DNA from: Leucoraja ocellata
Taxonomy: Eukaryota
Assembly (NCBI GenBank): GCA_036785375.1
Contig: JAWMAR010000231.1
Coordinates: forward strand, 3,534,001-3,598,000
Length of the DNA stretch: 64,000 nucleotides
Direction of reading: 5' to 3'
Below the pieces are notes generated by a model, which saw only the letters and a program-made list of their open reading frames with translations, searched no databases and was not told the origin of the DNA. A program made the translations under genes and the position numbers. Positions 2,613 through 51,186 of the stretch are shown in pieces (within the stretch, counting starts at the first letter, position 1; each line of letters starts with the position of its first letter).

Positions 2613-3124
2613 TCAAGCCAATATCTGGTATGCTTTCTTGTCTCCCAACGGCAGTAAGTACATTCACATTGGATAACAGCCTTTGATTGGGGACTTCAAA
2701 AATAGATCATAGAAAATTCCAGCACAGGAACAGGCCATTCAAAATGTCTGTGCCGAACTTAATTCCAAACTAAACTACCTGCACATGATCCACACCCCTC
2801 CGTACCCTGCATGTCCCTGCACAGGCAGCCTCAGGCTTGTCCTGGCCGCTCAGTCTTGGCCTTAAAGGAAGCACTGGATGGCTTGGGCTTGTCCTGGCGG
2901 CTCAGGTTTTGCTTTCCATGTGGGGCACAGTCCCTCATTGTCTCTGGGCATGTGAGGAGGTTATAGCGGTCCCAGGTTTGTTCTAGTATCTCAGCCTTCC
3001 TCCAAGCTTGCAAAAGGGAAGAACAGCTAATAGGGTGGCACCTCACTCTCTCTCCCTTTCTATCTCTTATTCCTTCCTTCCTCCCACCCCTTATTTTTTT
3101 TCCCTCTCCATCTCTGGCTGGAAT

Positions 3125-3285
3125 TGCCTTGGTTTGTAAGGAGGAGGGTGACGAGGTGCAGGTGAGCCAATCCAGCTAGATATGTACAGCTAAATGTACA
3201 CAGCTGTTGCTCCTCTGGCTGTGGGCTCAGCTCAGCTCAGTCTAGAGCTCTGTTCAGGTTGCTGGTGTTCTCCGGCAGTCAAGCA
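3125..3285 (+). repeat. Copy 1 of a ~160-bp local direct duplication (copy 2 at 4489-4644)
   Basis: tgccttggtttgtaaggaggag...ccggcagtcaagca occurs twice, with a few substitutions and one GCTCA unit difference. Confidence 0.95.
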
Positions 3286-3733
3286 CTGTTTGTAATGCTG
3301 ATTGTTGGCTTCTCCTGGCCTGTCTGCATGTGACGGGGATCAGAGTGGCACACACAGGTTAGGATGCACTGTCTTGTACGGATCATCTACATGATCCCAC
3401 TGTACATTATTTCTGTTCAGGACTTGCCATTGACTATACTTTGCCCTTGCATTCAACCTCCCAAAGTGCAACAACTCACACTTGCTCACTTTAAACTCAG
3501 ATTAAACTCCATGTGCCATATCTCTGCTAATTTCTATAGCTGATTTATATCCCACTGTATATTTTGATAGCCTTCCTCGCAGTACGCAATGCTAGCAATC
3601 TTGTCATCCGCAAACTTATTAAACAGCCCATCTACATTTACAAACTACAATATAATCTATAATTACAATCTGCATTTCCTGATTGTTATTATTGACTGTG
3701 GCTGATAAATGTCAGTGAATATTTGAACCACAA

Positions 3734-4488
3734 ACCATATAACCATATAACAATTACAGCACGGAAACAGGCCATCTCGGCCCTACAAGTCCATGCCGAA
3801 CAATTATTTTCCCTTAGCCCCACCTGCCTGCACTCATACCATAACCCTCCATTCCCTTCTCATCCATATGCCTATCCAATTTATTTTTAAATGATACCAA
3901 CAAGCCTGCCTCCACCACTTCCACTGGAAGCTCATTCCACACCGCTACCACTCTCTGAGTAAAGAAGTTCCCCCTCATGTTACCCCTAAACTTCTGTCCC
4001 TTAATTCTGAAGTCATGTCCTCTTGTTTGAATCATCCCTATTCTCAAAGGGAAAAGCTTGTCTACATCAACTCTGTCTATCCCTCTCATCATTTTAAAGA
4101 CTTCTATCAAGTCCCCCCCTTAACCTTCTGTGCTCCAGAGAATAAAGACCTAACTTATTCAACCTTTCTCTGTAACTTAGTTGTTGAAACCCAGGCAACA
4201 TTCTAGTAAATCTCCTCTGTACTCTCTCTATTTTGTTGACATCCTTCCTATAATTGGGCGACCAAAATTGTACACCATACTCCAGATTTGGTCTCACCAA
4301 TGCCTTGTACAATTTTAACATTACATCCCAGTTTCTATACTCAATGCTCTGATTTATAAAGGCTAGCATACCCAAAGCTTTCTTTACCACCCTGTCTATA
4401 TGAGATTCCACCAAGGAACTATGCACGGTTATTCCCAGATCCCTCTGTTCAACTGCATTGTTCAACTGCATTCAACTGCATTCTTCAA
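3734..4488 (-). mobile_element. 5'-truncated HER1-like CR1 LINE
   Basis: ORFs 4094-4471 and 3814-4110 (LVRPNLEYGVQFWSP; FFTQRVVAVWNELP) are separated by a frameshift; (TATGGTTA)n tail. Confidence 0.9.
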
Positions 4489-30832: not shown

Positions 30833-31000
30833 TAGAATAGAAACATAGAAAAATAGGTGCAAGAGTAGGCCTTTTTGGCCCTTCGAGCCAGCACCGCCAT
30901 TCAATGTGACCATGACTGATCATCTAAAATCAGTACCCTGTTCCTGCTTTTTCCCCATATCCCTTGATTCCTTTAGCCCTAAGAGCTAAAACTAACTCAA
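30833..31000 (-). mobile_element. CR1 3'UTR fragment
   Basis: (AAACATAG) tail and gccattcaatgtgaccatg. Confidence 0.8.
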
Positions 31001-31540
31001 TTCAATTCAGTTTCAATTTCAAAACTTTATTGGCATGATAAAAAATACATTGTTATATTGCCAAAGTATAAAACCTGACATACATATTTAAAATGCATAA
31101 GTATAAATACAAGTATACAGTGCATGGATAGATATGTCCCTGTACATAAACTGACAATAGGCCTATAGCCCTTTATTGATTGCTACGCGTTCTTGCAGCT
31201 GTAAGTTGTACAACAGAATAGCAAGTTTAGCAATTCAATATTAATTTCTTAGTGTCAGTTAATGTCAATTAGTGTGTGCGTACATATGTGCATGTTGGTC
31301 ATTCACCGTCTCTCAGGTTATGGCATGCTGTTACGTATTGTGCACCAAGATGTGCCGTATTTCATTCGCCAAGGATTATTCTTAGTTTTGATGTATCATC
31401 TAGATCTTTAAAATCAGGGATTGCCACACTGAGTTTCTCAAAGTATGTTTTCCTTGTTTTGTCAATTTATTTGCATTTTAGGAGGAAGTGCACCTCTGTT
31501 TCAACCTCATCTGTCAAACAGTGGCCACATACTCTCTATA
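31000..31540 (-). mobile_element. 3' end of an RTEX/CR1-group LINE with a CCHC-type C-terminal motif
   Basis: The minus strand encodes RVCGHCLTDEVETEVHFLLKC, followed by a 3'UTR with AATAAA and a (TGAAT)n-like tail. Confidence 0.65.
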
Positions 31541-31630
31541 ACCTGCCAGCAAACATTTGAATTCCAGGTTACTGCCATTATCCACAATTCTGTACATTTC
31601 TTGATCAACAAACCATCTTGATAGATGTTA

Positions 31631-32257
31631 TTTGCCTTCTACAATTCACAATTTATTAAAAAGAACAAAAATCTATGCAGGAAATCTGAAAGATAAGATT
31701 GAAACTAATGAAAGGAAAGCATCTGTTTTAAGACAAGCACATTAGATTTTAACCTTCAAAAATGGGGGGGGGGTGGTGAGAGGTAGGAGACTTTTTAGTT
31801 TAGTTTAGCTTGCGAACAGGTTCTTCCACCCACCAAGTCCACATTGATCACCCGTTCACGTCAACAGGTGGAGAGATGTTAAATTTAAATACTGTAAATC
31901 TCAGGCTGGCATCAATCTAACTCAAACTGTTCACATCTGTATTTACAGGAATTGAATAAAACTGTAGAAAACCATTCAGCAGATGGGTCCTCAGTTAAAT
32001 ATTATCTCAAAGGTCTGTGCCTCCTCATCATTCTCTATTTGAAATTTAATCTACTGGGCCTGGAAAGTAAACTAAGCCCTTCTTCGTTCTTACGGATCTA
32101 GTCTAGTTGCATCCCTCATCGACCATTTTCAGCATGCGGCCCCTCATGCATGCACAAAATCGCAGATGTGGGGGATCTGAGTAAAATCAAAACATTCTTA
32201 AATACTCAGTAGGTCAGGCAGTGTCAGTGGAGAGAGAAGCATGGTTGACGCTTCATG
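31631..32257 (+). repeat. Left arm of a 627-bp inverted duplication
   Basis: Reverse complement of 42839-43464, roughly 97% identical by eye. Confidence 0.97.
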
Positions 32258-32665
32258 CTGGAGAAACTCAGCGGCAGCATCTATGGAGCAAAGGAATAGG
32301 TGACGTTTCAGGTCGATCCTTCTTCAGACTGGTTCTTCAGTCTGATAAAGGGTCTCGACCTGAAACTTCACCTTGTAGTGGCCTGGATGAGGTCAGGAAA
32401 AGATCAGATGCCAGGCAGGTTCAGAAGTCGTTTTTGAAACAAGGCAAAAAACCAGAACGCCTGTGAGCAGGACCCGGGAAACCCCGTGGGCAGACAATCG
32501 TCCCTGTCCCTCAAGAGCCGAGGGGGGATGACCCAAGGAGTGCCCTAGCCCCTAGGAACCGCCACAACCTTTTCCTTTGCTCCATAGATGCCGCCTCACC
32601 CGCTGAGTTTCTCCAGCATTTTTATCTACCTTTGATTTTTCCAGCATGTGCAGTTCTTTCTTAAC
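32255..32665. mobile_element. Palindromic Penelope-like pLTR relic with hammerhead-like cores on both strands, interrupted by a solo LTR
   Basis: Arms ctggagaaactcagcgg..catctatggagcaaagga and tcctttgctccatagatg..ccgctgagtttctccag. The minus-strand core CUGAAGA-AGG(AUCGA)CCU-GAAAC-GUC lies at 32327-32302. Confidence 0.75.
32374..32566 (-). mobile_element. Solo LTR (193 bp), TG...CA ends, 4-bp TSD ACCT
   Basis: ACCT(32370-73)|TGTAGTGG...CCGCCACA|ACCT(32567-70). Removing it restores the pLTR sequence. Strand is inferred weakly. Confidence 0.8.
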
Positions 32666-32693
32666 ACTGCAATAATTATGGAGACATATCTTC

Positions 32694-35600
32694 ATGGGGT
32701 TAATAAAGGTTCAGAAGTTAGCCTACCCCCGACCCTCACCCGACCCTCGACCCTCACCCGACCCTCGGCCCTCACCCGACCCGCGACCCTCACCCGACCC
32801 GCGACCCTCACCCGACCCTCGGCCCTCACCCGACCCTCGGCCCTCACCCGACCCTCACCCGACCCTCGGCCCTCACCCGACCCTCGGCCCTCACCCGACC
32901 CTCGGCCCTCACCCGACCCGCGACCCTCACCCGACCCGCGGAGCCCAACTGTCCCGCGGAGCTGGAGAACGCCAGGTGAGCCCCGGAGCTGGAGAACGCC
33001 ACCCGACCCGTGGAGCTGGAGAACGCCATCCGACCCGTGGAGCTGGAGAACGCCATCCGACCCGTGGAGCTGGAGAACGCCACCCGACCCGTGGAGCTGG
33101 AGAACGCCACCCGACCCGTGGAGCTGGAGAACGCCATCCGACCCGTGGAGCTGGAGAACGCCATCCGACCCGTGGAGCTGGAGAACGCCATCCGACCCGT
33201 GGAGCTGGAGAACGCCATCCGACCCGTGGAGATCACCCGACCCATGGAGCTGGAGAATGCCACCCAACCCGTGGAGATCACCCGACCCGTGGAGCTGGAG
33301 AACGCCCCGGAGCTGGAGAACACCCCGGAGCTGGAGACCGCCACCCGACCCGCTGGGCTGGAGAACGCCAGGTAAGCCCCGGGGCTGGAGACCATCAGCA
33401 GAGCCGCGGGGCTGAAGACCGCCTGCGGAGTAACGCAGACGCGGAGCAACGGAGCGGCAGAACACCAGCGCGCACCAAGCCAGCTTGGCCCACCAGAAGC
33501 ACCAACAGACGGCGACGCATACGAAAACACCGCCGGGGACGCAGAGGTGGGTTAAAGGCCAGGTTAGAGCTAGCCCCACACAGGGCAGCGATTCCTAGCC
33601 TTTTCCTCGCCAACCTGCGCTCACTGGCAAACAAAATGGATGAACTCCGGCTAAGGATCACCTCCCACAACTGGATCAAGGACTGCAACATCCTGATCTT
33701 CACGGAAACTTGGCTCAACACTGACGTTCCTGACAGCGCCATCCAGCTATCGGGGCGTCATTTACTCCGAGCGGACAGGACGTCAGACTCCGGTAAGACC
33801 AGAGGTGGGGGCCTGTGCATTTATGTAAATAAAGCATGGTGCACGGACTCCACCATCATCGAGAGTCACTGCTCAGCTAACCTTGAGTTCCTCTTGGGTA
33901 GATGCAGACCGTTCTATCTGCCCAGAGAGTTTACCTCCACTGTTGTGACTGCAGCCTATATCCCTCCTGATGCTAATGCCAAGCTTGCAATGAAAGAGCT
34001 GCATACTGCCATTAGCAATCAACAGACGCACAACCCCGAGGCAGCCTTCATTGTTGCGGGTGACTTCAATCACTCCAACCTGAAGACTGTACTCCCCAAA
34101 TTCCACCAACATGTCTCCTTCCCCACTAGAGTAGACAAGACACTGGACAAAGTCTACACCAACATGGCTGAAGCTTACAAAGCCATCCCCCTCCCCCACC
34201 TTGGTCAGTCTGATCACGTCTCATTGTTCCTGCTCCCTAAGTACTCCCCACTCATCAGACGGGTTAAACCAACTGTGAGGACAGTTAAAGTCTGGTCAGA
34301 GGAAGCGGACTTCGCACTTCAGCAGTGTTTTGGAAACACTGACTGGAAGGCGTTTGCAGCCCAGGCCACCCTTGAATCCCACACGGACATTGATTCCTAC
34401 ACATCCTCTGTTCTGGACTTTATAAACTCCACCATCAATAGTGTCACCTCCCTCAAACAGGTGACCATATTCCCGAATCAGAAGCCATGGATGAACAGCG
34501 AGGTCAGGCTACTGCTGAAAGCATGGGACACCGCTTTCAGGTCAGGCGATGCTCGAGCCTACAGTTCATCCAGGGCTAACCTGAAGAGGGGTATCAGGAA
34601 GGCCAAGCACTGCCATAAGCTCAGGATTGAGGAGCACTTCAACAACAACTCCGACCCCCGACGCATGTGGCAAGGCATCCAGGCCATCACGGACTACAGA
34701 CCGTCCAACATCACCCCCACATCCAGCGACTCCTCCTTCCTTGAGGAGCTTAATCACTTCTATGGCTGCTTCGACAGGGACAATCTAGAGACAGCCTTCA
34801 AGGCTGTGCTACCTGCCAATCACCAACCCCTCACACTCACCCCCTACGACGTATACGTGGCACTGAGTAGGACTAATGCACGTAAAGCTGCTGGCCCTGA
34901 CGGCATCCCCGGGCGCGTGCTCAGTGCCTGTGCTGCGCAGCTGACAGACGTCTGGACTGACATCTTCAACCTGTCACTTGCCCAAGCAGTTGTCCCCACT
35001 TGCCTTAAAACCACCTCCATCGTGCCAGTGCCAAAACACTCCACTGCGGCAAGCCTCAACGACTTCCGCCCAGTTGCACTTACCCCCATCATCACCAAGT
35101 GCTTCGAGAGGCTGGTCCTGGCACACCTCAAAAGCTGCCTACCCCCCACACTGGATCCCTATCAGTTTGCCTACCGCAAGAACAGGAGTACGGAGGATGC
35201 CATCTCAACGGCACTTCACTCCGCCCTCTCCCACCTCGACAACAGAGCCACTTACGTAAGAATGCTGTTCATCGATTACAGCTCAGCATTCAACACCATT
35301 ATACCATCAAAACTGATCACCAAACTCGGTAACCTGGGCATCGACCCCTCCCTCTGCAACTGGATACTGGACTTTCTAACCAACAGACCCCAGTCTGTTA
35401 GGTTAGACAAGCACACCTCTTCAACCCTCACCCTGAACACCGGCATTCCACAGGGCTGTGTGCTGAGCCCCCTCCTCTACTCCCTCTTCACCTATGACTG
35501 CACACCTGTACATGGTACTAACACCATCATCAAGTATGCAGATGGTACAACGGTGATTGGCCTCATCAGCAACAACGATGAGCTGGCCTACAGGGAGGAG

Positions 35601-36222
35601 GTCCAGCACTTAGCAGCATGGTGAGCTGACAACAACCTGGCCCTTAACTCCAAGAAGACCAAGGAGCTCATTTTAGACTTCAGGAAGTCCAGAAGCGGCA
35701 CGCACACCCCCATCCACATTAACGGGACGGAGGTGGAACGTGTTTCTAGCTTCAGGTTCCTGGGAGTCAACATCTCCGATGACCTCTCTTGGACCCACAA
35801 TACCTCAACTGATCAAGAAGGCTCACCAGCGTCTCTTCTTTCTGAGGAGACTGAAGAAGGTCCATTTGCCTCCTCAGATCCTGGCGAATTTCTACCGCTG
35901 CACCATCGAGAGCATCCTTACCAACTGCATCACAGTATGGTATGGCAATTGCTCTGTCTCCGACCGGAAGGCATTGCAGAGGGTGGTGAAAATTGCCCAA
36001 CGCATCACCGTTTCCTCGCTCCCCTCCATTGAGTTTGTCCAAAGCAAGCGTTGTCTGCGGAGTGCGCTCAGCATCGCCAAGGACTGCTCTCACCCCAACC
36101 ATGGACTGTTTACCCTCCTACCATCCGGGAGGCGCTACAGGTCTCTCCGTTGCCGAACCAGCAGGTCGAGGAACAGCTTCTTCCCGGCGGCTGTCACTCT
36201 ACTCAACAACGTACCTCGGTGA
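32694..36222 (+). pseudogene. Rex1 endonuclease-reverse transcriptase ORF with lesions
   Basis: EN motifs (LANLRSL.NK, FTETWL, GGGLCIY, AGDFN, TLDKVY, SDH) and RT motifs (FRPVAL, FIDYSSAFNTI, GIPQGCVLSP). Catalytic YADD reads YADG (35535-46), there is an in-frame TGA at 35622-24 and a frameshift near 35805, and the frame continues in 35740-36222. Confidence 0.92.
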
Positions 36223-36386
36223 CTGCCAATCACCACCCCCCCCCCCGGACACTTATTATTATTTATTCAAATCAGTTGCTATGTCGCTCTTCCAGGGAGA
36301 TGCTAAATGCATTTCGTTGTCTCTGTACTGTACACTGACAATGACAATTAAAATTGAATCTGAATCTGAATCTGAATCTGAATCTT
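32700..36386 (+). mobile_element. Near full-length Rex1/Babar LINE, disabled
   Basis: APE endonuclease, RT and Rex1-type C-terminus; 3'UTR with ATTAAA and (TGAATC)n tail. 5' boundary uncertain. Confidence 0.92.
32728..33420 (+). repeat. Compound minisatellite: 18-bp (CCCTCACCCGACCCTCGG)n then 27-bp (CCGTGGAGCTGGAGAACGCCATCCGAC)n
   Basis: Read directly. Unit lengths are multiples of 3, giving long repetitive ORFs on both strands. Confidence 0.95.
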
Positions 36387-36624
36387 ATAATAGAAAGATT
36401 AATAGTGAGATTAAACGAGTACTTACCAGTACGAAGTTTGATCTGTATTTTATGAGGAGTTACGATGAGGGATTACGTGAAGAACCCACCCAGTGCGCAG
36501 GCGCGGCATACTTCCAAGCAGCGGTGTGGAATCACAGGTAGACACAATATTGAAGTAAAGATAGTAAAGATTAAAGAAACATCAGCTCGAGTTTGATCTA
36601 TACAACGAGGGTGGGAGCGGAGGG

Positions 36625-36737
36625 CACGTAATCCCTCATCGTAACTCCTCATAAAATACAGATCAAACTTCGTACTGGTAAGTACTCGTTTAATCTCACT
36701 ATTTTACTTCGGAGTCACGTGAGTGACTACGTGAAGA
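36625..36737. repeat. Internal complementary region (ICR) of the young DIRS
   Basis: 36625-36703 is the reverse complement of 36401-36479, and 36701-36737 is the reverse complement of 41179-41215. The two halves overlap at ATT. Confidence 0.95.
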
Positions 36738-36897
36738 CTTCAAAGGTCTGTGATTTCAAACCGTGTAACAGCTATATCACTCACTGCCGAAGTTCATCGA
36801 GGGAGGAAGTGGTATCTAAAGACCAACGAATTTGTTAGTTTTTTGAAACAAAATTGTTTATTTAACAATAACAAAAATAGCTCCCCTGGGCTTTAAA

Positions 36898-37851
36898 TTA
36901 TAAGTTTGCAGATTCTAAAATTTTGTCCGCAAACAAGTCCTTCTCCATCAGCGGTTTGTGGTAGAATTTCCGGAACGTTGATTCCCTTGACCATCCCGCT
37001 GTACTAAGGATGTGGTCTATGGGAACCTGCATCCGTTCCGCCGCTGACGTGGACGCTGCCCTGGTAGAATGGGATTTAAAAACATCCGTGTTAATCCCCG
37101 CGGCTTTTAAGACCTGTTTCAACCACCTAGATATTGTCTGGCTGGTAACCCGTCCAAAAGGCTTTTTGTGGCTGACCCATAAGGCTTTTTCACTCCCTCT
37201 AAGCGTTTGGGTTGTGTCTACGTAGTTGTATAGATGGGTCACTACACACAGCCTAGGTTCTGGAGGATAGGCCCGGAAGATTAACGGAGAGTTGGGCATA
37301 CCTGGCCTGCTTTGTTTTACCAACCCCGGCATGGTAAATGTAATGGAATCTGGGGTGGTTAACATGTTGTCCAGTCTTAGTTGATGCAGCGACTGAACCC
37401 TTTGTGCAGAGACGAGCGCCATGAGCATGAGGGTCTTGAGAGTGGACTGCTCCAGACTCAAGGATCCCACCGGAGGCCAACCTCTAAGGTGTGACAAAAC
37501 TACACTTACATCCCATACATGGGTGTATCTGGGTGTAGGAGGTTTAGTATTATAAATCCCTTTGAGGAGTTTTATAACCAGAGGGTGGGATCCAATGCTG
37601 TGATGTCCTGTAGGCATAAGGTAAGCGGACAGGGCGCTCCGTGCTGCATTGATGGCACTGTAGCTCATCTTTTGGTCATGGTGCAAGTGGGCCAGGAATT
37701 CCAGCACATCCGTGATCGAGGCTGTCTTGTATGATGTCCCTGCATCCAAGCAGTACTGCTCCCATTTCTTGATGTAGGTCAAGTACTGTTTCTTGGTAGA
37801 GACTCGCAGGGACGCCGACATGGTGGTGATTGTTCGTTCCGATAACCCCAA
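36898..37851 (-). CDS. DIRS tyrosine recombinase
   Basis: Uninterrupted 317 codons with an N-terminal SAM-like part and catalytic R (SAQRV), K (VKQSR), HSTR, W (AGWS) and Y (FRKFY). The listed start is TTG; the first ATG is at 37821. Confidence 0.92.
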   Translation of the reverse strand: MGLSERTITTMSASLRVSTKKQYLTYIKKWEQYCLDAGTSYKTASITDVLEFLAHLHHDQKMSYSAINAARSALSAYLMPTGHHSIGSHPLVIKLLKGIYNTKPPTPRYTHVWDVSVVLSHLRGWPPVGSLSLEQSTLKTLMLMALVSAQRVQSLHQLRLDNMLTTPDSITFTMPGLVKQSRPGMPNSPLIFRAYPPEPRLCVVTHLYNYVDTTQTLRGSEKALWVSHKKPFGRVTSQTISRWLKQVLKAAGINTDVFKSHSTRAASTSAAERMQVPIDHILSTAGWSRESTFRKFYHKPLMEKDLFADKILESANL

Positions 37852-37868
37852 TCCCTGGTAAGGCCTGT

Positions 37869-38303
37869 TCAGAACCTACAAACCAGGAGTTTCAATTTTT
37901 GATGGTATGGATGGCTTATGCCGGATACCGGATGAGTCAATAGTTGTGGGTGGCTGTGAAAAACCATAGGTGACTCTACCACCATGTCGTGGAAAACTGG
38001 GAACCATGGTTGGGTAGGCCAGTCGGGTACGACCAGAATACCTGAAGCCGAGTCTGCTTGTATTTTCTGGAGTACCCGGCTGATGAGGCAGAAGGGAGGG
38101 AAAGCATAGAAGAAGAAATTTCCCCAATCCAGCGTGAAGGCATCTACCGCTGCTGCCTCTGGGTCTGGTTCCCAAGCCACATACATGGGTAGCTGGTGAT
38201 TTAATCTAGACGCAAACAAATCTATATCTGGCGTACCATATTGCTTAACAATTCTAGCAAATATTTTTGGGTCTAACATCCATTCGATGTTGTCATTGAA
38301 TTT
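37869..38303 (-). CDS. DIRS methyltransferase-like domain (N6-adenine MT type), in frame with RT-RNase H after a TGA
   Basis: Motifs DIDLFASRLN and YAFPPF, then LVVPDWPTQPWF. Confidence 0.85.
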   Translation of the reverse strand, partial: KFNDNIEWMLDPKIFARIVKQYGTPDIDLFASRLNHQLPMYVAWEPDPEAAAVDAFTLDWGNFFFYAFPPFCLISRVLQKIQADSASGILVVPDWPTQPWFPVFHDMVVESPMVFHSHPQLLTHPVSGISHPYHQKLKLLVCRF

Positions 38304-39810
38304 TCATGACCTGGTGTCCGCCACTGTGTTTAGCTTGCCTGGTAAATAGGCAGCTGATAGCCAAATATGTCTCTCGACACACCATTGCCAGATTATAGTA
38401 GTCAATTTGTCGCATGATACTGATTTTATGCCACCCATGTGCCGGATGTAAGACACCGCCGTCGTGTTATCAATCATTAACCTGACATGCACGTGCCGCA
38501 TATCGGATGCATATGCTTTTAGCCCATAAAAGGCGGCCAGCATCTCCAAATAATTTATGCCAAGTGATTGTAGTAGCGATGCCTCTGAATTAGTCCATCT
38601 GCCACCTGTGCTGGATATAGAGTTAGTAGCTCCCCAGCCTAAAGCACTGGCATCCGTTGTAATGGCTATGTTAGGATTGGTGACGGCGATAGGACTGTAA
38701 CTGTGCCAAATGTTATCCACCCACCACTGAAGTTCTGTTTTGGCTTCAGCGGGTAAGTCCATAGTTCGGTCATAATGCCCCCTACTTAGACGTAGTGCAC
38801 GTGTCCTTGCTCTTTGTAAATTCTGATAATGCAAGGGACCATATTGTGCAGCTGGAAATGCTGCTACTATACTACCAATGACTCTGGCTACATGCCGGAT
38901 CTTTGGTTGTGTTTTTGCGATTAAGTTGTTACAGGCTTCTGCTAATGCAGCCTTTTTGTCTCTTGGCAGAGTGACAGTCATACGGATAGTGTCGATAGTG
39001 AAGCCTAGATAGTCCATGTTAGTTGTTGGCTTCAATATTGATTTATCTGGGTGTAGAACAAATCCCAATGTTTCAAGGAGTTGTTTAGTAGCTAAGACTC
39101 CTGCGACAGCTAGTTCCCTTGTTCTCCCCAATATGAGAACATCATCCAGATAGGCCATGACTAAATGTTTTTGTTCTCTTAATTTTTTCATGGCCACTTT
39201 GAGAATTTTAGTAAATAATCTGGGAGCTGTCGTTAAACCATTGGGTAATGCTCTATACTGCCATAGTTGCCCCATCCAGATAAATTTCAGATATCTGAAA
39301 TGATCCTTATGAATGGGTACTAAATAGTAGGCATCCTTAATATCTATGCTTGCCATGAAGTATCCCTTGGAGATCATGTTGTCTGGCAGTAACAAATGTC
39401 TCCATTTTGAAATGTTGATACTCAACAGACTGATTTAGTGATGTCAAATCAATAATAATGCGACATCCACCATCTTTTTTGGTTTTGATAAATATATTCG
39501 ATACAAATTCCAATGGCTCGTGTCTGGCCCTCTCAATGACGCCTTTGGACACGAGCCTATCTAGTTCAGCTTGTCCTTCTACCTTCTCTAATTGTGTGGG
39601 AAGGAATACCCTTTGGGGTATGTGCTGAACCGGCGGTTCTATGCCTGGTTTAAATTCAATTTTGTATCCACTGATACTGTTGAGTATGAACTTGTTGTTA
39701 GTAAAGGAGCACCAAACATGTTTGAAGAACCTTAAACGCCCTCCTGTTAATACAACACCCTTTGTCTGCGTATGTTGACAGGAACCAGACCCACCTACCT
39801 CCATGTTCAT
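38304..39810 (-). pseudogene. DIRS reverse transcriptase-RNase H, with one +1 frameshift (~39380) and a TGA at 38306-38304
   Basis: GGRL, KKDGGCRIIIDL, FKMET / SIDIKDAY, LPNGL, YLDD, TTDASALGWG, INYLEMLA, IDNTTAV, NTVAD. Confidence 0.92.
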
Positions 39811-41033
39811 TTCTGGGAGCGTTTGCGATGGGTTTGGCCCGAGGGTGTCCTTGTTGGTGCTGTGGTGGGGCGGCGTATCTTCCCACGGCTCCGCTCTGGG
39901 CCCCGCTCTAAAAAAGAGCTCTGGGGGTAGTGGGAAGCGGTCACCAGGCTTTCACCAGCTCGGTACCTGCTGGTGGATGCCGAGGCGTGCTGCCAACTGG
40001 GTGTCTTCACCCTGCTCGGTCCTGGCCCTGCCCTCATGAGGCCTACAGGCTTGGCCGCCTCTTCCAGCTCCTTGAGCCTTTTCGCCAAGTCGGCCCCGAA
40101 TAGTAGCGCCTCCTTTTCTGGCGCCGGAGCTTTGCAAAGGCCCGCGTATTTGGGGTTGAGGGCAGGCCTGATGTTTTCACGCCTTAAATTGTTGAGCTCA
40201 TACTGCGTGTTACACATTAGGGCCAGCACGTCCTGCTGAGGTGTAGAGAGCTCCTCGTTCCCCGTGGACCGAGCAAAGGCGGTAATGGCTGCGGTGTGGA
40301 GCTTCAGGATACGCTGCATCTTCAGCTCTTGTGTCCTGACATGCTGCCCCAGCTGGCTCCATATCTGGCCGTTTACGGTCTTTACTCGAAGCGCTTCGCA
40401 GTTTTCCGGCGCTGTGTAAGTGTCGAGGGCCTCTTGTAAGATTTTCTCCTGCAATGGCTTATTGGAGAGCCTGTTGATACTGGCCGCCATTCTTGGCGCT
40501 AGCATCATTCCGGTCCTCGGGGGCGCCGCATACCTGCTGACTACACCCAGTAGCTCTTCTTCCTCCAGCTCGCCTGGCATGCTTGCGCTGTCGTCCGCCT
40601 GCCCTTGTGATAGGCCAGCCCAGTCCTGGCCTCCCTTACTGACCTCAAACAAGGAGGGAACAGAAGGGTGTGGTGATGGTTTGGAGGAGGCCACAGCCCG
40701 TCCTCCTTGGAGATGCCTTGCCTGCATCTCCTCCTCGAGCATCTGCTCGAGCAGCTGCCTTATGCAGCTTAAGCGGCTGTCTCCCCGTTTCGCCGGTGGA
40801 GAGTGTTCCCGTTCCTCCGACGAGTCGGAGGCCACCGGCCGGTCTGTTTTTCGGGTTGATTTTCTCCCTGTGCGGGGCATCGCAATCGGCGGCACAGGGA
40901 GCGGCTCGGCGTCGGGTGTGCGGGAGCGTTCAAACAGCTCCTCCGCCGCTGGTGGCTGCCGCCCAGATATTGACCCCTCCTCGGGTGGAGTTGGGCAGGC
41001 AGTCCTCTTTGTTGGTCGCTTGCGGGTAGCCAT
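39807..41033 (-). CDS. DIRS ORF1 (gag-like), 408 aa
   Basis: Uninterrupted ATG-initiated ORF in the ORF1 position, with PENC...VN..IW and LFG.DL segments. Its stop overlaps the pol ATG (ATGA). Confidence 0.85.
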   Translation of the reverse strand: MATRKRPTKRTACPTPPEEGSISGRQPPAAEELFERSRTPDAEPLPVPPIAMPRTGRKSTRKTDRPVASDSSEEREHSPPAKRGDSRLSCIRQLLEQMLEEEMQARHLQGGRAVASSKPSPHPSVPSLFEVSKGGQDWAGLSQGQADDSASMPGELEEEELLGVVSRYAAPPRTGMMLAPRMAASINRLSNKPLQEKILQEALDTYTAPENCEALRVKTVNGQIWSQLGQHVRTQELKMQRILKLHTAAITAFARSTGNEELSTPQQDVLALMCNTQYELNNLRRENIRPALNPKYAGLCKAPAPEKEALLFGADLAKRLKELEEAAKPVGLMRAGPGPSRVKTPSWQHASASTSRYRAGESLVTASHYPQSSFLERGPERSRGKIRRPTTAPTRTPSGQTHRKRSQK

Positions 41034-42838
41034 AGCTTTCCTCCGTTAGCGACTCTCTGTAATACAAAAGACTCACTTACCTGAGGACTTGTCTTTATCC
41101 TGCCGCTGGAGAGCCTGGCTCCAGCTGCTGCCGCTGTTGCGCTGCTGACGTAATGCCGCGCCTGCGCACTGGGTGGGTTCTTCACGTAGTCACTCACGTG
41201 ACTCCGAAGTAAAATCGAGAACTTACCGTTTGAAGTTTGATCTTTATTTTATGTGAAGTTGAAGTAAGCGAATACGTGAAGAGCCCGCAAGCCCGCATGT
41301 GCTTCAATTTTCAGAGCAACTGTATGAAACCACAGACCAGTTGCAGAACATAAACTATAGAAAGATTAACGAGCCTAGAGTTACCGGCTGATCTTTTATG
41401 AGAATCAGGGTTGGGAGTGGAGGGCACTCCCTCCACTCTCTCACTTCAACTTCTCATAAAATAACGATCAAACTTCAAATGGTAAGTTCTCGTTTAATCT
41501 TTCTATTTTATTTCGAAGTCACGTGAGTGACTACGTGAAGCCTGCAAAGCTATGTGGTTTCATGCAGTAACCCAATCTGCGTGTGAAACACTTAAACAGA
41601 TAAAACCATAATTGGCAGAAAGACGTGGGTTATTAACAACATGATGCTAACTTGCATCCATAGCCATTGCTCTTAATTGGACCATAGTCCCAATTGGCTT
41701 TGAGTTAGACAATAACTCATGCCATACTGTACAGAATTATTTCTGCAATCATTCAGACATATTCAACCAAAATTTTATAACCTCCGAAAGTGCACTGTGT
41801 AAACCTCCTGCTGTTGCAAGAAGACGGACAAATGGGAATATCCATTCTATTGGCTGCTAATGAGCCACCAACAATCTCTTGAAAACTATTAATTAACAAT
41901 GAAGAAAGTATCCTTCATTGCATAGATACCCGCAAGCTCAGTGTACCTGTATACATAATAACACCCCCAATCTCTGATCTGGTGGATATGCTGGCAACTC
42001 CAACTTGTACCCAACCATGCCCATTTAGCTTTATGAGATCATTCCCATAACAAGCTACCCCCATGTCAGTTATGACCCAGAGTCCGAGCCGGAGATTGAG
42101 TAAAGGGTATGTTCTTTGTGCTGAATCAGCTGCTAAAGCATAATCAACATAAGATTCTGCTCCCATGAGGAAAACAGTAGATGAATATCTGCATAATAAT
42201 TTACTGATATACATTCTACACTACTATAGGATTTAGAGCAGTCATATAAAATACACTTTGCATTATGTTAGTCAACAATGGGAGAATAACCAATCATTAA
42301 TTGTCCCACTTATGGCACTATAGAGAATGACAAAGCAGCTCAAACAGTGTCAATTGTGCTGTAACATAATTGCTTCTCTGAGCGCAAGCTGAGAGAAACA
42401 CAAAGCTCTGCTACTTCTGTTTAAAAGTAGCTCACATGTCTTCTCCACAAAGTCCTATGCAATCGTGCAGAGCCAGCTGCAAGAGAAATAGGCTGAGGTA
42501 GCCATCACTCGTGACTTTGAGTAAAATGGAGCTTCTTTCAGCCGCCTTACCATGGGACACACGTGACTTCGAAATAAAATTAAGTGAGGATAGTGTTGGA
42601 TGAAGTGGACAGCAGATTAACTGGAAAGATGTTGAATATCAGTTTAGTTTATTATTACATGTACTGAGGTACACAGTCACTTGTGTCACCCAGCCCCACT
42701 TGGCTTCTATCTAACCTTAAATATTCCCGCCCTTCTCCACCCCTCCTTCACAATTTGTGTTGAGTTGGCATCAGGCTTGAGTTTTTTTAATTTTAACATT
42801 ATTTCCTCTCCTAATCGCTCCCTCTCTGCTGGCATCAA

Positions 42839-43464
42839 CATGAAGCGTCAACCATGCTTCTCTCTCCACTGACGCTGCCTGACCTACTGAGTATTTAAGA
42901 ATGTTTTGATTTTACTCAGATCTCCCCACATCTGCGATTTTGTGCATGCATGAGGGGCCGCATGCTGAAAATGGTCGGTGGGGGATGCAACTAGACTAGA
43001 TCCGTAAGAACGAAGAAGGGCTTAGTTTACTTTCCAGGCCCAGTAGATTAAATTTCAAATAGAGAATGATGAGGCGGCACAGACCTTTGTGATAATATTT
43101 AACTGAGGACCCATCTGCTGAATGGTTATCTACAGTTTTATTCAATTCCTGTAAATACAGATGTGAACAGTTTGAGTTAGATTGATGCCAGCCTGAGATT
43201 TACAGTATTTAAATTTAACATCTCTTCACCTGTTGACGTGAACGGGTGATCAATGTGGACTTGGTGGGTGGAAGAACCTGTTCGCAAGCTAAACTAAACT
43301 AAAACGTCTCCTACCTCTCACCACCCCCCCATTTTTGAAGGTTAAAATCTAGTGTGCTTGTCTTAAAACAGATGCTTCCCGTTGCATTAGTTTCAATCTT
43401 ATCTTTCAGATTTCCTGCATACATTTTTGTTCTTTTTAATAAATTGTGAATTGTAGAAGGCAAA
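42839..43464 (-). repeat. Right arm of the 627-bp inverted duplication
   Basis: Reverse complement of 31631-32257. Confidence 0.97.
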
Positions 43465-43499
43465 CATTTTTGTCTACCTATAATTATTGCAGTTCTTTT

Positions 43500-45160
43500 T
43501 TTACGTCACTATTAGTTTTTGATGTGTACTTTTTCTACAAAATAATTACTGCTTGGGGTTCTCTACACTAGTCCACCACAATAGTAACCCTTCATTCCTA
43601 CTTGTGTTTTTAGTCTCCACCCAAATAGTCAATATTATCTGAGCGAGAATGTCTTTTATCTCTCTAGAATGTCTTTCATCACATTCACACCTAATGCCAC
43701 CATCCTTTCCTCGCCACCTGTCCTCCCTAAACATTGTACTCAGTTTTGATTCTGTGCAGCCATGTCTCTGCAATGGCTTATGGGATTTTACCTGTTCACC
43801 TCTATTTATGCCAATGGTTCATTAACCACATTACACTTCATCAATTAACATTCAATCCCCTTTTTTTTCAAGGTGGTTCCACTTGGCTCTCACCCTTGAC
43901 ATCCCTGTCTTCTGCTGTTGCAACTACTGTTCTTTCTTTCATGTCAGGCCGTGTTTCATTCTTTTTCAAACTGATACAGTCCTGAAACGTCACCTTTGCA
44001 TGTCCGGCGGGTCAGGCAGCATCTCTGGAGAGAAAGGAATAGGTGATGTTTTGGGTCAAGACCCTTCCTGAAGGTGGGATCTTCAGTTCAGAAATAGCGT
44101 CTTAACCCGAAATGTCACCAATTCCTTTTCTACAGAGATGCTGCAAGATCAGTGGAGTTACTCCAGCTTTTTGTGTCCACCTTCCCCAAAATTGGTTCTA
44201 GTGTCCCAAGAATCCAAATCCCTCACTCCTGCACCATGTCTTTAGCCCCACCCTTTTCATTTGGTCTATTCTCCTGTTCCGACACTAACTAGCATGTGGT
44301 ACTTCTGAGAGTATTACTTTTGAAGTCCTGCTTTTTAATTTATTTCTTAATTTCTTGTATTCATTTTGCAGGACTTTATGCATTTTGTAATCTACTTTGT
44401 TGAAATTGATATATACTGCCACCGTTGGTTGCATACACTCCCCTTTCAAAGAGTTATAAAGTTATACAGCAGAGAAACAGACTTCTCGGTCTACCCTGTC
44501 CATTCCCCGTCCATCTATACTCATCGCACATACCAGCACCTCTAAAACTTGGCAATTCAAGTGTTCTTCTAGATACTTATACAATATTTGCCTCCACCAA
44601 CCTCTCTGCCAAATGCATTCCAAATTCCAATCATCCTGGTGGGGGAAAATAATTCTTCTTTATCTCCTCTAACCTTTCACTCCTTACCTTAAACATGGTT
44701 GTAGATACCTCTGTTGTGTGGAATAATTTACCACAGACTATCTATGCCCCTCTTAATTTTATACACCTCTATTAAATTTCTTTTCAACCTTTTCTGCTCC
44801 AAGAAAATCAAACCTAGCCTTTCTTGTCTCTCTTTAGACACTCCATCCCAACAACATCCTGGTGAATCTCCTCTGCACACTCTCCTGAGCAATCACATTG
44901 AATCCATTCTATGGTGACCAAAACGGCAAGCAAAATTTTAGATGTGGCCTCACAATGCTTTATAAAGCTGTACCATATCTTACCTACTCTTATATTCTCT
45001 GCCCCAGACAATGAAGGTTACCAACCCCATGCTTTCAATACCACTCTATCTCCCTGGGGTGCCACCTTCAGAGGTCTTTCAGGATGCTCTGCAGCCTTTC
45101 TGTGACACCCTTCACCCCAGCACCAGACCATCCTGGAGTCACTTGTGCAGCTCTTCTCTG
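43500..45160 (-). mobile_element. Mosaic of decayed CR1 pieces (endonuclease region, ORF1 region, 3' end) with a palindromic pLTR relic at ~43975-44180
   Basis: FREDRWRGKDGGI...IWVE (CR1 endonuclease-like); 44450-45080 resembles CR1 3' ends. Confidence 0.6.
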
Positions 45161-49574: not shown

Positions 49575-50190
49575 CGTTTGTAGTTCAGATCAACTCGCGG
49601 GCGGCGGGAGTGCCCCGGGAAGCCGCGCTTGCCCAATCCATCCGCCGAACAACTGTGCCACCGACGACCAGAGCGACGACCGAAATGTGCCCCGAGAGGC
49701 CTGACTCGCACCACAGGCCTCCCAGGGAATTGTGAGGATGCCGGGCGGCGAGGCCTGTCTGGGCCGCAGGAGCCTCAGGGCGTCGGCGATGGGAGTCTTG
49801 GCGGCAACGGGGCCTTCGGTGGCAACAGAGCATCGGCGGCGACAGTGGGAACCTCAGTGGCGGTGGTGCAGCATGAGGAGAGGGGGAAGACAATGGTGAT
49901 CTGGCGTGGGGGGGGTGGCCGTAAGGGACAGTGGGAGAACAAAGGGGGACCCAGTGTGGGGGAGTGGGAGGGCATTCTATTTTACATTCCTTTGCCCTGG
50001 GGAATGTCTGTGTTTGTTTGTTTGTTCATTTGTTCCGATGAAGGCGCTGTGCACACGACAGCCAGACAACAGTCGCTTGTCCTTTTTTTTTCACTTTCAG
50101 GTTTATGTGTACCTTGTTGTGTGTTGTGACTATTGCAAACCAATTTCCCTCCTGGGGATGAATAAAGTTTATCGTATCGTATCGCATCGT
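49575..50190 (+). mobile_element. GC/CpG-rich non-autonomous retroelement with AATAAA+(TATCG)n tail
   Basis: Ends atttccctcctggggatgaataaagtttatcgtatcgtatcg; no credible coding similarity. Confidence 0.55.
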
Positions 50191-51186
50191 TTTGTTACAC
50201 TTTCCAGTTCCTTGTGCCACTACCATCAACTGATTGATCCCAACGATAACATTACAGACCCACACTACAAAGGCCACCAGAATAAAACAGCAGGGTTTAT
50301 TTTTGCTTTGGATTTCAGCTGACAGCAAAGTCTCCATCCATCAGCTGCTGAGATTTATAACGGATTAAAATGCCTACTTGTGAAATTATCACATCTTAAT
50401 GCTGCTTTACATTATACATTTCAGCATCTAATCATCACAACTTCAACTTCAGTGTATTCATCATTAAAATTGAAAAGCCCCAGAACCGCTGAGCATTTGT
50501 ATGAAGTGACTTCACCACGAGGCACACTTTTAGCTGATAACGAGCAACGCATTTCTCAAAGAAAAAATACCTAGGAAAACAATTTGCAATAAGAAGAAAG
50601 ATTTCTTTGAAGCTGAAATAATTTTGCACTCAGAAGATAAGTCTATCTGCATTGCTTTGATGTTCATTTGATCCATCCTTTGATGTTCATTTGATCCATC
50701 ACTTGATCCATCCTTATCTTTTTTTTTGTGCAGACTTTCTATGATTTCATAAATTGCAGACAATTTTGCCTGTCATTTAATTTCTAGACACAGGCTATAC
50801 AAAGGCCACGAAGCTGGCAGAGAAAAACATTTGTGCAACATCTGTGAATCTGTGGCAACAGGTACTATATAAATTATGCCCACAGGCTTCCTTTTGGAAA
50901 ATCTTATCTACCATGTGACATCACATCGGAAGTCTCGATGTGTAGCAATCCTTCTGATTAAACATATTTTTGCAATTCGAAATTACATTGGGAGAAGCTG
51001 CATCTATTTTAAAACTTGACAGGATATTTCAGATGGAGTTTATACTTTAGGTGGGGCTTATGAGTTTTATGTCACAACAAGGTATTTCAGATTTACTGTA
51101 TGCAAAGCAATCTAAATAAAATTGCAGTGTGGCATGGGTCATGAACCTTTTGCATAGTTGCATATATTAATCATGAACAATTTTGC

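Follow-up and report, generated by a model that had tools for sequence, protein, structure and literature searches.

Recombination between existing inverted repeats is the usual default explanation for inversions in vertebrates, and it is the process to which the inversions of herring have been ascribed (PMC11499932), as have those of the DAIBAM cases in the Drosophila virilis group (PMC6278893). Other Drosophila inversions carry inverted duplications derived from a single breakpoint, 46 bp to 1.9 kb in size, which are explained by a staggered-break model (the S5B scenario; Ranz et al. 2007, PMC1885836); the same paper raises the difficulty that a long overhang requires long unwinding. Among events attributed to template switching during replication, those of the 3-1-2-4 type account for 23% (Loytynoja and Goldman 2017, PMC5453318). 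Penelope-like insertions, finally, can comprise an inverted, 5'-truncated copy and a one-sided tail of 30-40 bp (PMC8557442).

The locus described here lies in a window of 64,000 nucleotides, by which we mean the whole stretch of DNA that was analysed. An inverted segment (32258..42838; 10.6 kb today, 2330 bp in a second, mirror copy of the region) carries at its two ends, in opposite orientations, a 627-bp sequence that we call X, and its far break splits a palindromic Penelope-type relic from part of one arm and from one copy of its target-site duplication (TSD). The present structure, the split relic and TSD, relatives with the unflipped order, and Rex1-like and DIRS elements that arrived later together describe a history to which we assign a probability of about 0.95.

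The locus resembles the inversions of PMC1885836 in that a unique sequence is inverted and duplicated at both ends, one breakpoint would be staggered, the duplication falls within the described size range and the event is polarised by outgroups. It differs from them in scale (a few kilobases, as opposed to cytologically visible inversions), in lying in a vertebrate-like genome, in duplicating no gene, and in that a split retroelement and its TSD locate the blunt break with single-base precision. As in the herring and DAIBAM cases, the breakpoints carry inverted repeats and one of them a mobile-element relic. The repeat, however, is newly formed in this instance: X is non-repetitive and present a second time within a split element, and the junctions do not fall in register with the related relics. 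The product belongs to the inversions with a one-sided inverted duplication, a known type of scar. We found no literature on this particular locus, nor was any to be expected.

A unique sequence lies inverted at both ends of the segment

In a self-BLAST of the window, positions 31631-32260 and 43464-42836 form an opposite-strand pair with 97.15% identity over 632 columns, in agreement with an earlier, sequence-only reading that had described 31631-32257 and 42839-43464 as inverted copies with about 97% identity. Trimmed at the junctions, the two copies differ by 12 substitutions over 624 aligned sites and by small indels. The left copy (31631..32257, forward strand) retains its native left neighbour, and its right side meets the broken relic at a junction that we call J1. 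The right copy (42839..43464, reverse strand) retains its native neighbour on the other side, B, and abuts the first 15 bases of the relic at junction J2 (43464/43465). No duplication is common to the outer flanks of the pair.

Four full copies of X are present in the genome among the 40 scored matches, at two mirror loci that comprise the pair in the window and a second pair in the mirror copy, and a follow-up check placed 4 of 4 X candidates in one of these pairs. Sequence spanning 31630/31631 was likewise found only in the window and in the mirror copy. X is therefore a non-repetitive sequence, inverted at both ends of the segment, and not the multicopy terminal inverted repeat (TIR) that the earlier reading had named as the finding that would contradict it.

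The second X pair lies 1.2 Mb away on the same contig, within an inverted copy of the surrounding region. Over the 50 kb compared, window and mirror are mostly 96-99% identical and have all flanks in common; the mirror carries both junctions, with 2330 bp between the arms and without the stretches 32725-36385 (a LINE) and 36404-41212 (a DIRS element). On a larger scale, about 2.11-2.61 Mb and 3.0-3.8 Mb of this contig (C231) form an inverted mirror of at least 0.8 Mb with 97-98% identity and many insertion differences. The mirror was followed to 3.0 Mb and 3.8 Mb on this contig, which are minimum extents, and a probe at 3.4 Mb found no partner. Because closely matching pairs in opposite orientation recur on single contigs elsewhere in the assembly, the mirror is probably the other haplotype, left uncollapsed.

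Three diagnostic sites distinguish the left from the right arm in both regions, and no site unites the two arms of one region; the duplication of X therefore predates the split between window and mirror. The arms diverge by 1.3-1.9%, which is less than the distance to organisms that lack J2 (about 4-9%) and close to the distance to those that carry it (0.9-1.9%). The second copy of X sits inside the split element and must be younger than that element. The proposal that the duplication of X was a product of the event holds.

The far break splits a palindromic relic and its target-site duplication

The main part of the relic (32258..32665, forward strand) consists of the remainder of a short arm (32258-32331), a loop of 6 nt (32332-32337), a long arm (32338-32631) and a 34-bp tail on one side only (32632-32665). 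The first 15 bases of the short arm lie at 43465..43479 on the reverse strand, parted from the rest by the inversion. They match the long arm at 32617-32631 in 14 of 15 positions, and their reverse complement rejoins the relic at 32258 with zero gain or loss; the outer piece of the left arm, which the sequence-only reading had recognised beyond the right X copy, is thus indeed the missing one. In the rejoined relic, with a 193-bp solo LTR excluded, 82 of 89 sites are paired between the short and the long arm, and most short arms of the family begin at the position equivalent to 43479. The solo LTR (32374..32566, forward strand) has TG...CA ends, is flanked by a 4-bp duplication (32370-32373 and 32567-32570) and has many copies with the same ends; it probably interrupted the long arm before the inversion break. 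Its family is multi-copy and includes, on contigs C20 and C193, pairs on the same strand with a spacing of about 4 kb.

Beyond the two parts of the relic lie a 14-mer at the tail (32666..32679, forward strand) and another at the short arm (43480..43493, reverse strand, now inverted), which are exact reverse complements and the sole two copies in the window. We surveyed 28 other loci fetched with the long arm and tested the eight non-duplicate ones with a nearby inverted arm. A duplication abutting the short arm measures 13-17 bp in six of these palindromic copies (with at most one mismatch allowed, and including 1-3 bases common to the element ends), is 9 bp long in one and is absent in one. 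Since family copies show the same layout, the 14-mer, already taken for the TSD of the element in the earlier reading, is typical. The contrary possibility, that it is no TSD, which the likeness of the bases past its right copy to the relic tail had raised, was rejected in view of this layout and of the relic-free flank in one relative (organism G, below). The target-site flank at 43488-43504 does resemble the relic tail in opposite orientation (15 of 17 positions by eye), by chance or through target preference. The two halves of one insertion now stand in opposite orientations, 11 kb apart, with nothing lost.

We apply the label Penelope-type on structural grounds. Like the Penelope-like insertions described in PMC8557442, the relic has two inverted arms and a single-end tail of 34 bp, and the TSDs of its family measure 13-17 bp; unlike them, it retains no ORF, and neither an Rfam hammerhead match nor a protein link to the intact GIY-YIG elements of the genome was found. 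The Rfam scan for a hammerhead covered 31000-44500 and gave no match with E up to 1, although minimal or decayed motifs may escape such a scan. ORF tails upstream of single arms at two loci (L021 and L032), which by eye we take to resemble the GIY-YIG end, scored no higher than shuffles against an intact GIY-YIG ORF (197/2000 and 669/2000), and an arm-like match at 2 of 20 GIY-YIG loci is probably due to chance. Intact GIY-YIG reading frames of 759 aa occur in tandem arrays (L075-L094; for example on contigs C353, C922 and C2032); these arrays are a young Penelope-like family, distinct from the relic.

Relatives retain the unflipped order

Eight of 24 listed sequencing runs from relatives were compared (A, B, C, D, E, F, G and X7), with locus L011 as reference, in which J2 lies at 3328/3329. 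Single contigs span J2 in B (2757-3919), E (3183-3940) and F (2755-3370; all in L011 coordinates), and a contig of organism A extends 30 letters past J2, one below the bridging criterion. The contigs of A, B, E and F differ from L011 by 0.9-1.9%. J1 was found in none of the relatives' contigs among those listed, and the J2 contigs are thus no proof of a flipped spacer in these organisms.

In each of C and D, a single contig contains X-B and, on the opposite strand, the far flank; 498-499 letters separate the two, and the contig spans the boundary between X and B. These opposite-strand joints are the order predicted for the unflipped state, and they polarise the event. They come from two of the four outgroup runs, with G compatible and X7 too shallow; C and D have many variants in common and may be one lineage, and alignment of their contigs fails over the 130 bp adjoining the break. 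A comparison of the 510-bp sum of the unique pieces with the 498-letter outgroup spacer was discarded as invalid, because 130 bp of that sum are unaligned in the C and D contigs. The contig of G runs through the far flank up to the target site and continues with 142 letters unlike either relic or X. No contig bridging J2 was found in C, D or G among those listed, where contigs show presence and not absence, and we infer a single copy of X in the outgroups.

The sequence-only reading had deduced the ancestral order of X, B and the far flank, and had predicted that the segment would have the opposite orientation in related species; the C and D contigs bear out both. The present orientation in outgroups, which it had named as contrary evidence, was not found: these two contigs are unflipped.

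The flipped piece was small and has since been enlarged by insertions

The inversion had been described as one of about 11 kb. This figure needs correction: 11 kb is the present span, and the event involved at most about 2.3 kb, since the mirror has the same junctions without the LINE and the DIRS element. At its origin the flipped piece measured between 0.8 kb, an estimate from relic and unique DNA, and at most about 2.3 kb, the limit set by the mirror copy.

The larger part of today's segment consists of two retroelements. The LINE (32725..36385, forward strand), for which the label Rex1 presumably fits, has an endonuclease and a reverse transcriptase (Pfam Exo_endo_phos and RVT_1, the endonuclease match slightly below its cut-off), a tail of 6-nt repeats and tandem arrays at its 5' end, and is 97% identical to other copies. 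It replaced about 220 bp of target DNA, which is gone at its 5' end and kept in the mirror, where the LINE is absent; a contig of organism A also spans the LINE site in its empty state. In the 5' part (32725-33423), arrays of 18-nt and 27-nt units lie in an open frame that continues into the endonuclease. The DIRS element (36404..41212, reverse strand) has a reverse transcriptase and a tyrosine recombinase (Pfam RVT_1 and Phage_integrase) together with inverted ends and no TSD, as expected of DIRS elements; it is 99-100% identical to other copies and absent from the mirror. This very young element stands within an older relic of a DIRS end (36388-41562 in all), joined to it at a common AAT without a TSD, which suggests that it inserted into its own kind. 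The duplication is older than the mirror split and neither insert is present in the mirror, whose two junctions are the same; LINE and DIRS are therefore later arrivals, as the earlier reading had suspected.

A Pfam search with six reading frames from the two inserts returned retroelement domains only, and the segment holds no further long reading frame. Judged from these annotations, the inversion has no evident function and appears to be a neutral scar in repeat-rich non-coding DNA that affected no gene as far as tested. Elsewhere in the window, GC-rich stretches with long open frames at 49584-50319 and 454-1049 are possible CpG islands or first exons.

A staggered break as the proposed mechanism

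An older, decayed relic related to the Penelope arm (42835..42915, reverse strand) lies at the end of X. The sequence-only reading had seen the right X copy as continuous with an old pLTR at about 42700-42940; the relic does cross the junction, by about 4 nt, but its alignment is confined to about 42835-42915 and would be weak evidence by itself. The X-B junction is spanned directly by the outgroup contigs. Relative to the older relic, J1 is shifted from register by about 60 nt, so that homologous exchange between the relics is excluded. On this ground, and because the second X lies inside the split element, we rejected inversion by recombination between pre-existing repeats.

We favour, at about even odds, a staggered break across X combined with a clean break in the relic, resolved by end-joining and likely in a single event. 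The palindromic relic would have inserted first, and the chromosome would then have broken in a staggered manner across X and cleanly within the relic. Either nicks on opposite strands 627 bp apart or breaks on two sister chromatids would have given each product a copy of X. The segment, no longer than 2.3 kb, would have flipped before end-joining restored the chromosome, with the 627-bp X in mirror image at both ends; both ends of the distal break would have been reused without loss and with no more than 3 bp of microhomology (ATG).

Read along the ancestral sequence, the rearranged locus proceeds as far as the end of X, then backwards from the relic break until the start of X is reached, and from that break onwards in the original direction. 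The two new junctions touch the relic at the same base, with an ambiguity of 0-3 bp, which suits one clean break of which both ends were reused. At J1, an ATG (32255-32257) is common to both parent sequences, and at J2 an ATG is shared only if 3 bp were lost later. The microhomology reported earlier for the left junction is therefore present, but as evidence it is weak and near chance, since three or more bases of junction microhomology arise in 5.8% of random joins. The 627-nt overhang, which would require long unwinding, may count against a staggered break. The chemistry of the break is what we infer; the sequence would be identical after a template switch, or if a templated copy of X had been made and the spacer had then flipped.

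Alternative origins of the inverted duplication

The foremost competitor, a possibility about half as probable in our estimation, is a template switch during replication, of type 3-1-2-4 or the mirror of that type, with the relic hairpin as trigger. The polymerase would have stalled about 15 nt into the hairpin, moved onto the opposite strand where X starts, copied about 2.9 kb back to the point of the stall and resumed at the end of X. The four-point order at the locus is exactly 3-1-2-4 and gives an inverted repeat around an inverted spacer, so that both switch-point order and product equal those of this type in PMC5453318; the ATG common to J1, and arguably to J2, would also suit a switch. 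The model in that paper, however, was designed for local events that span a few tens of bases, whereas the piece copied here would measure about 1.4-2.9 kb. Moreover, two independent switches would have to hit one and the same base of the relic, a coincidence that is exact here and for which the model sections of that paper contain no adjacency rule that we could find.

The hairpin itself is a further point on which this explanation turns. Folded as single-stranded DNA, the rejoined relic reaches -130.6 kcal/mol with the solo LTR and -102.2 kcal/mol without it (values with no shuffle control), and the stem contains the break. The break lies just beyond the weak outer 15 bp of the hairpin, which are A/T-rich with one mismatch, and far from the loop. 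A polymerase stall just past these 15 bp is possible. Structure-specific cuts fall at the loop or the base of a hairpin, and a cruciform growing from the centre would halt at the solo LTR before reaching the break. The relic family covers 1502 of the 64,000 bases of the window (2.35%), from which the chance that one of three break positions falls in it is about 7%; a single break in the family is thus weak evidence. The event is recognisable only through the element that it split. One case cannot show a trigger. The earlier suggestion that the hairpin probably triggered the event finds no support, given a break 15 bp inside the stem and at neither base nor loop, and the hairpin was probably incidental. 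We regard as rather unlikely the wider idea that the numerous palindromic Penelope relics stall replication and trigger kilobase-scale 3-1-2-4 template switches; were it true, these relics would be a systematic germline source of small inversions with new inverted repeats, and the locus a base-exact record of one.

A little less probable than the template switch is a single double-strand break in the relic, filled by an inverted copy of X templated about 2 kb away, with the spacer flipped in the same event or later by a crossover between the new 627-bp repeats. One break would suffice here, both intact break ends would be accounted for, and an ATG could have primed both ends. Such an origin would nevertheless need two steps or an unusual resolution; in addition, both genome copies are flipped, and the three diagnostic sites show no exchange between the arms.

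We consider it very improbable that the rearrangement took place during the Penelope insertion itself, through remodelled ends at the target site. Insertion of L1 can invert sequence locally, or duplicate it in inverted form, while the TSD is retained (10.1101/2024.12.14.628481), but at this locus nothing of the insertion is missing, both copies of the TSD are present and the break lies inside the element. Changes common to both regions number 7 of 290 in relic and solo LTR against 3 of 1240 branch-sites in X, counted for the matching interval (Fisher p = 0.0006), where the first figure may be inflated by subfamily differences (the long arm alone gives 1 of 99). From these counts, the insertion of the relic seems to be older than the inversion.

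Least probable of all is that X is the TIR of a large transposon or the pair an assembly artefact. Transposon genes do lie between two long inverted arms, and the genome has a further pair of this kind, yet that pair lies in the mirror copy with all flanks in common, and no dispersed copies with unrelated flanks were found. The genes between the arms are those of the LINE and the DIRS element, neither of which the mirror contains. In outgroups X runs directly into B, a divergence of 1.9% separates the arms, and contigs of three other organisms span J2. X was rejected as a transposon terminus for want of an outer TSD, a transposase and dispersed copies.

Implications

The locus provides a clean example of inverted repeats at the ends of an inversion that are its product and not its cause. 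The polarity of the event can be read from a single sequence, through the split element and its TSD, and is confirmed by the relatives. J2 is a rare genomic change that at least three other organisms carry and that was unseen in three more distant ones, which makes it usable as a clade marker.
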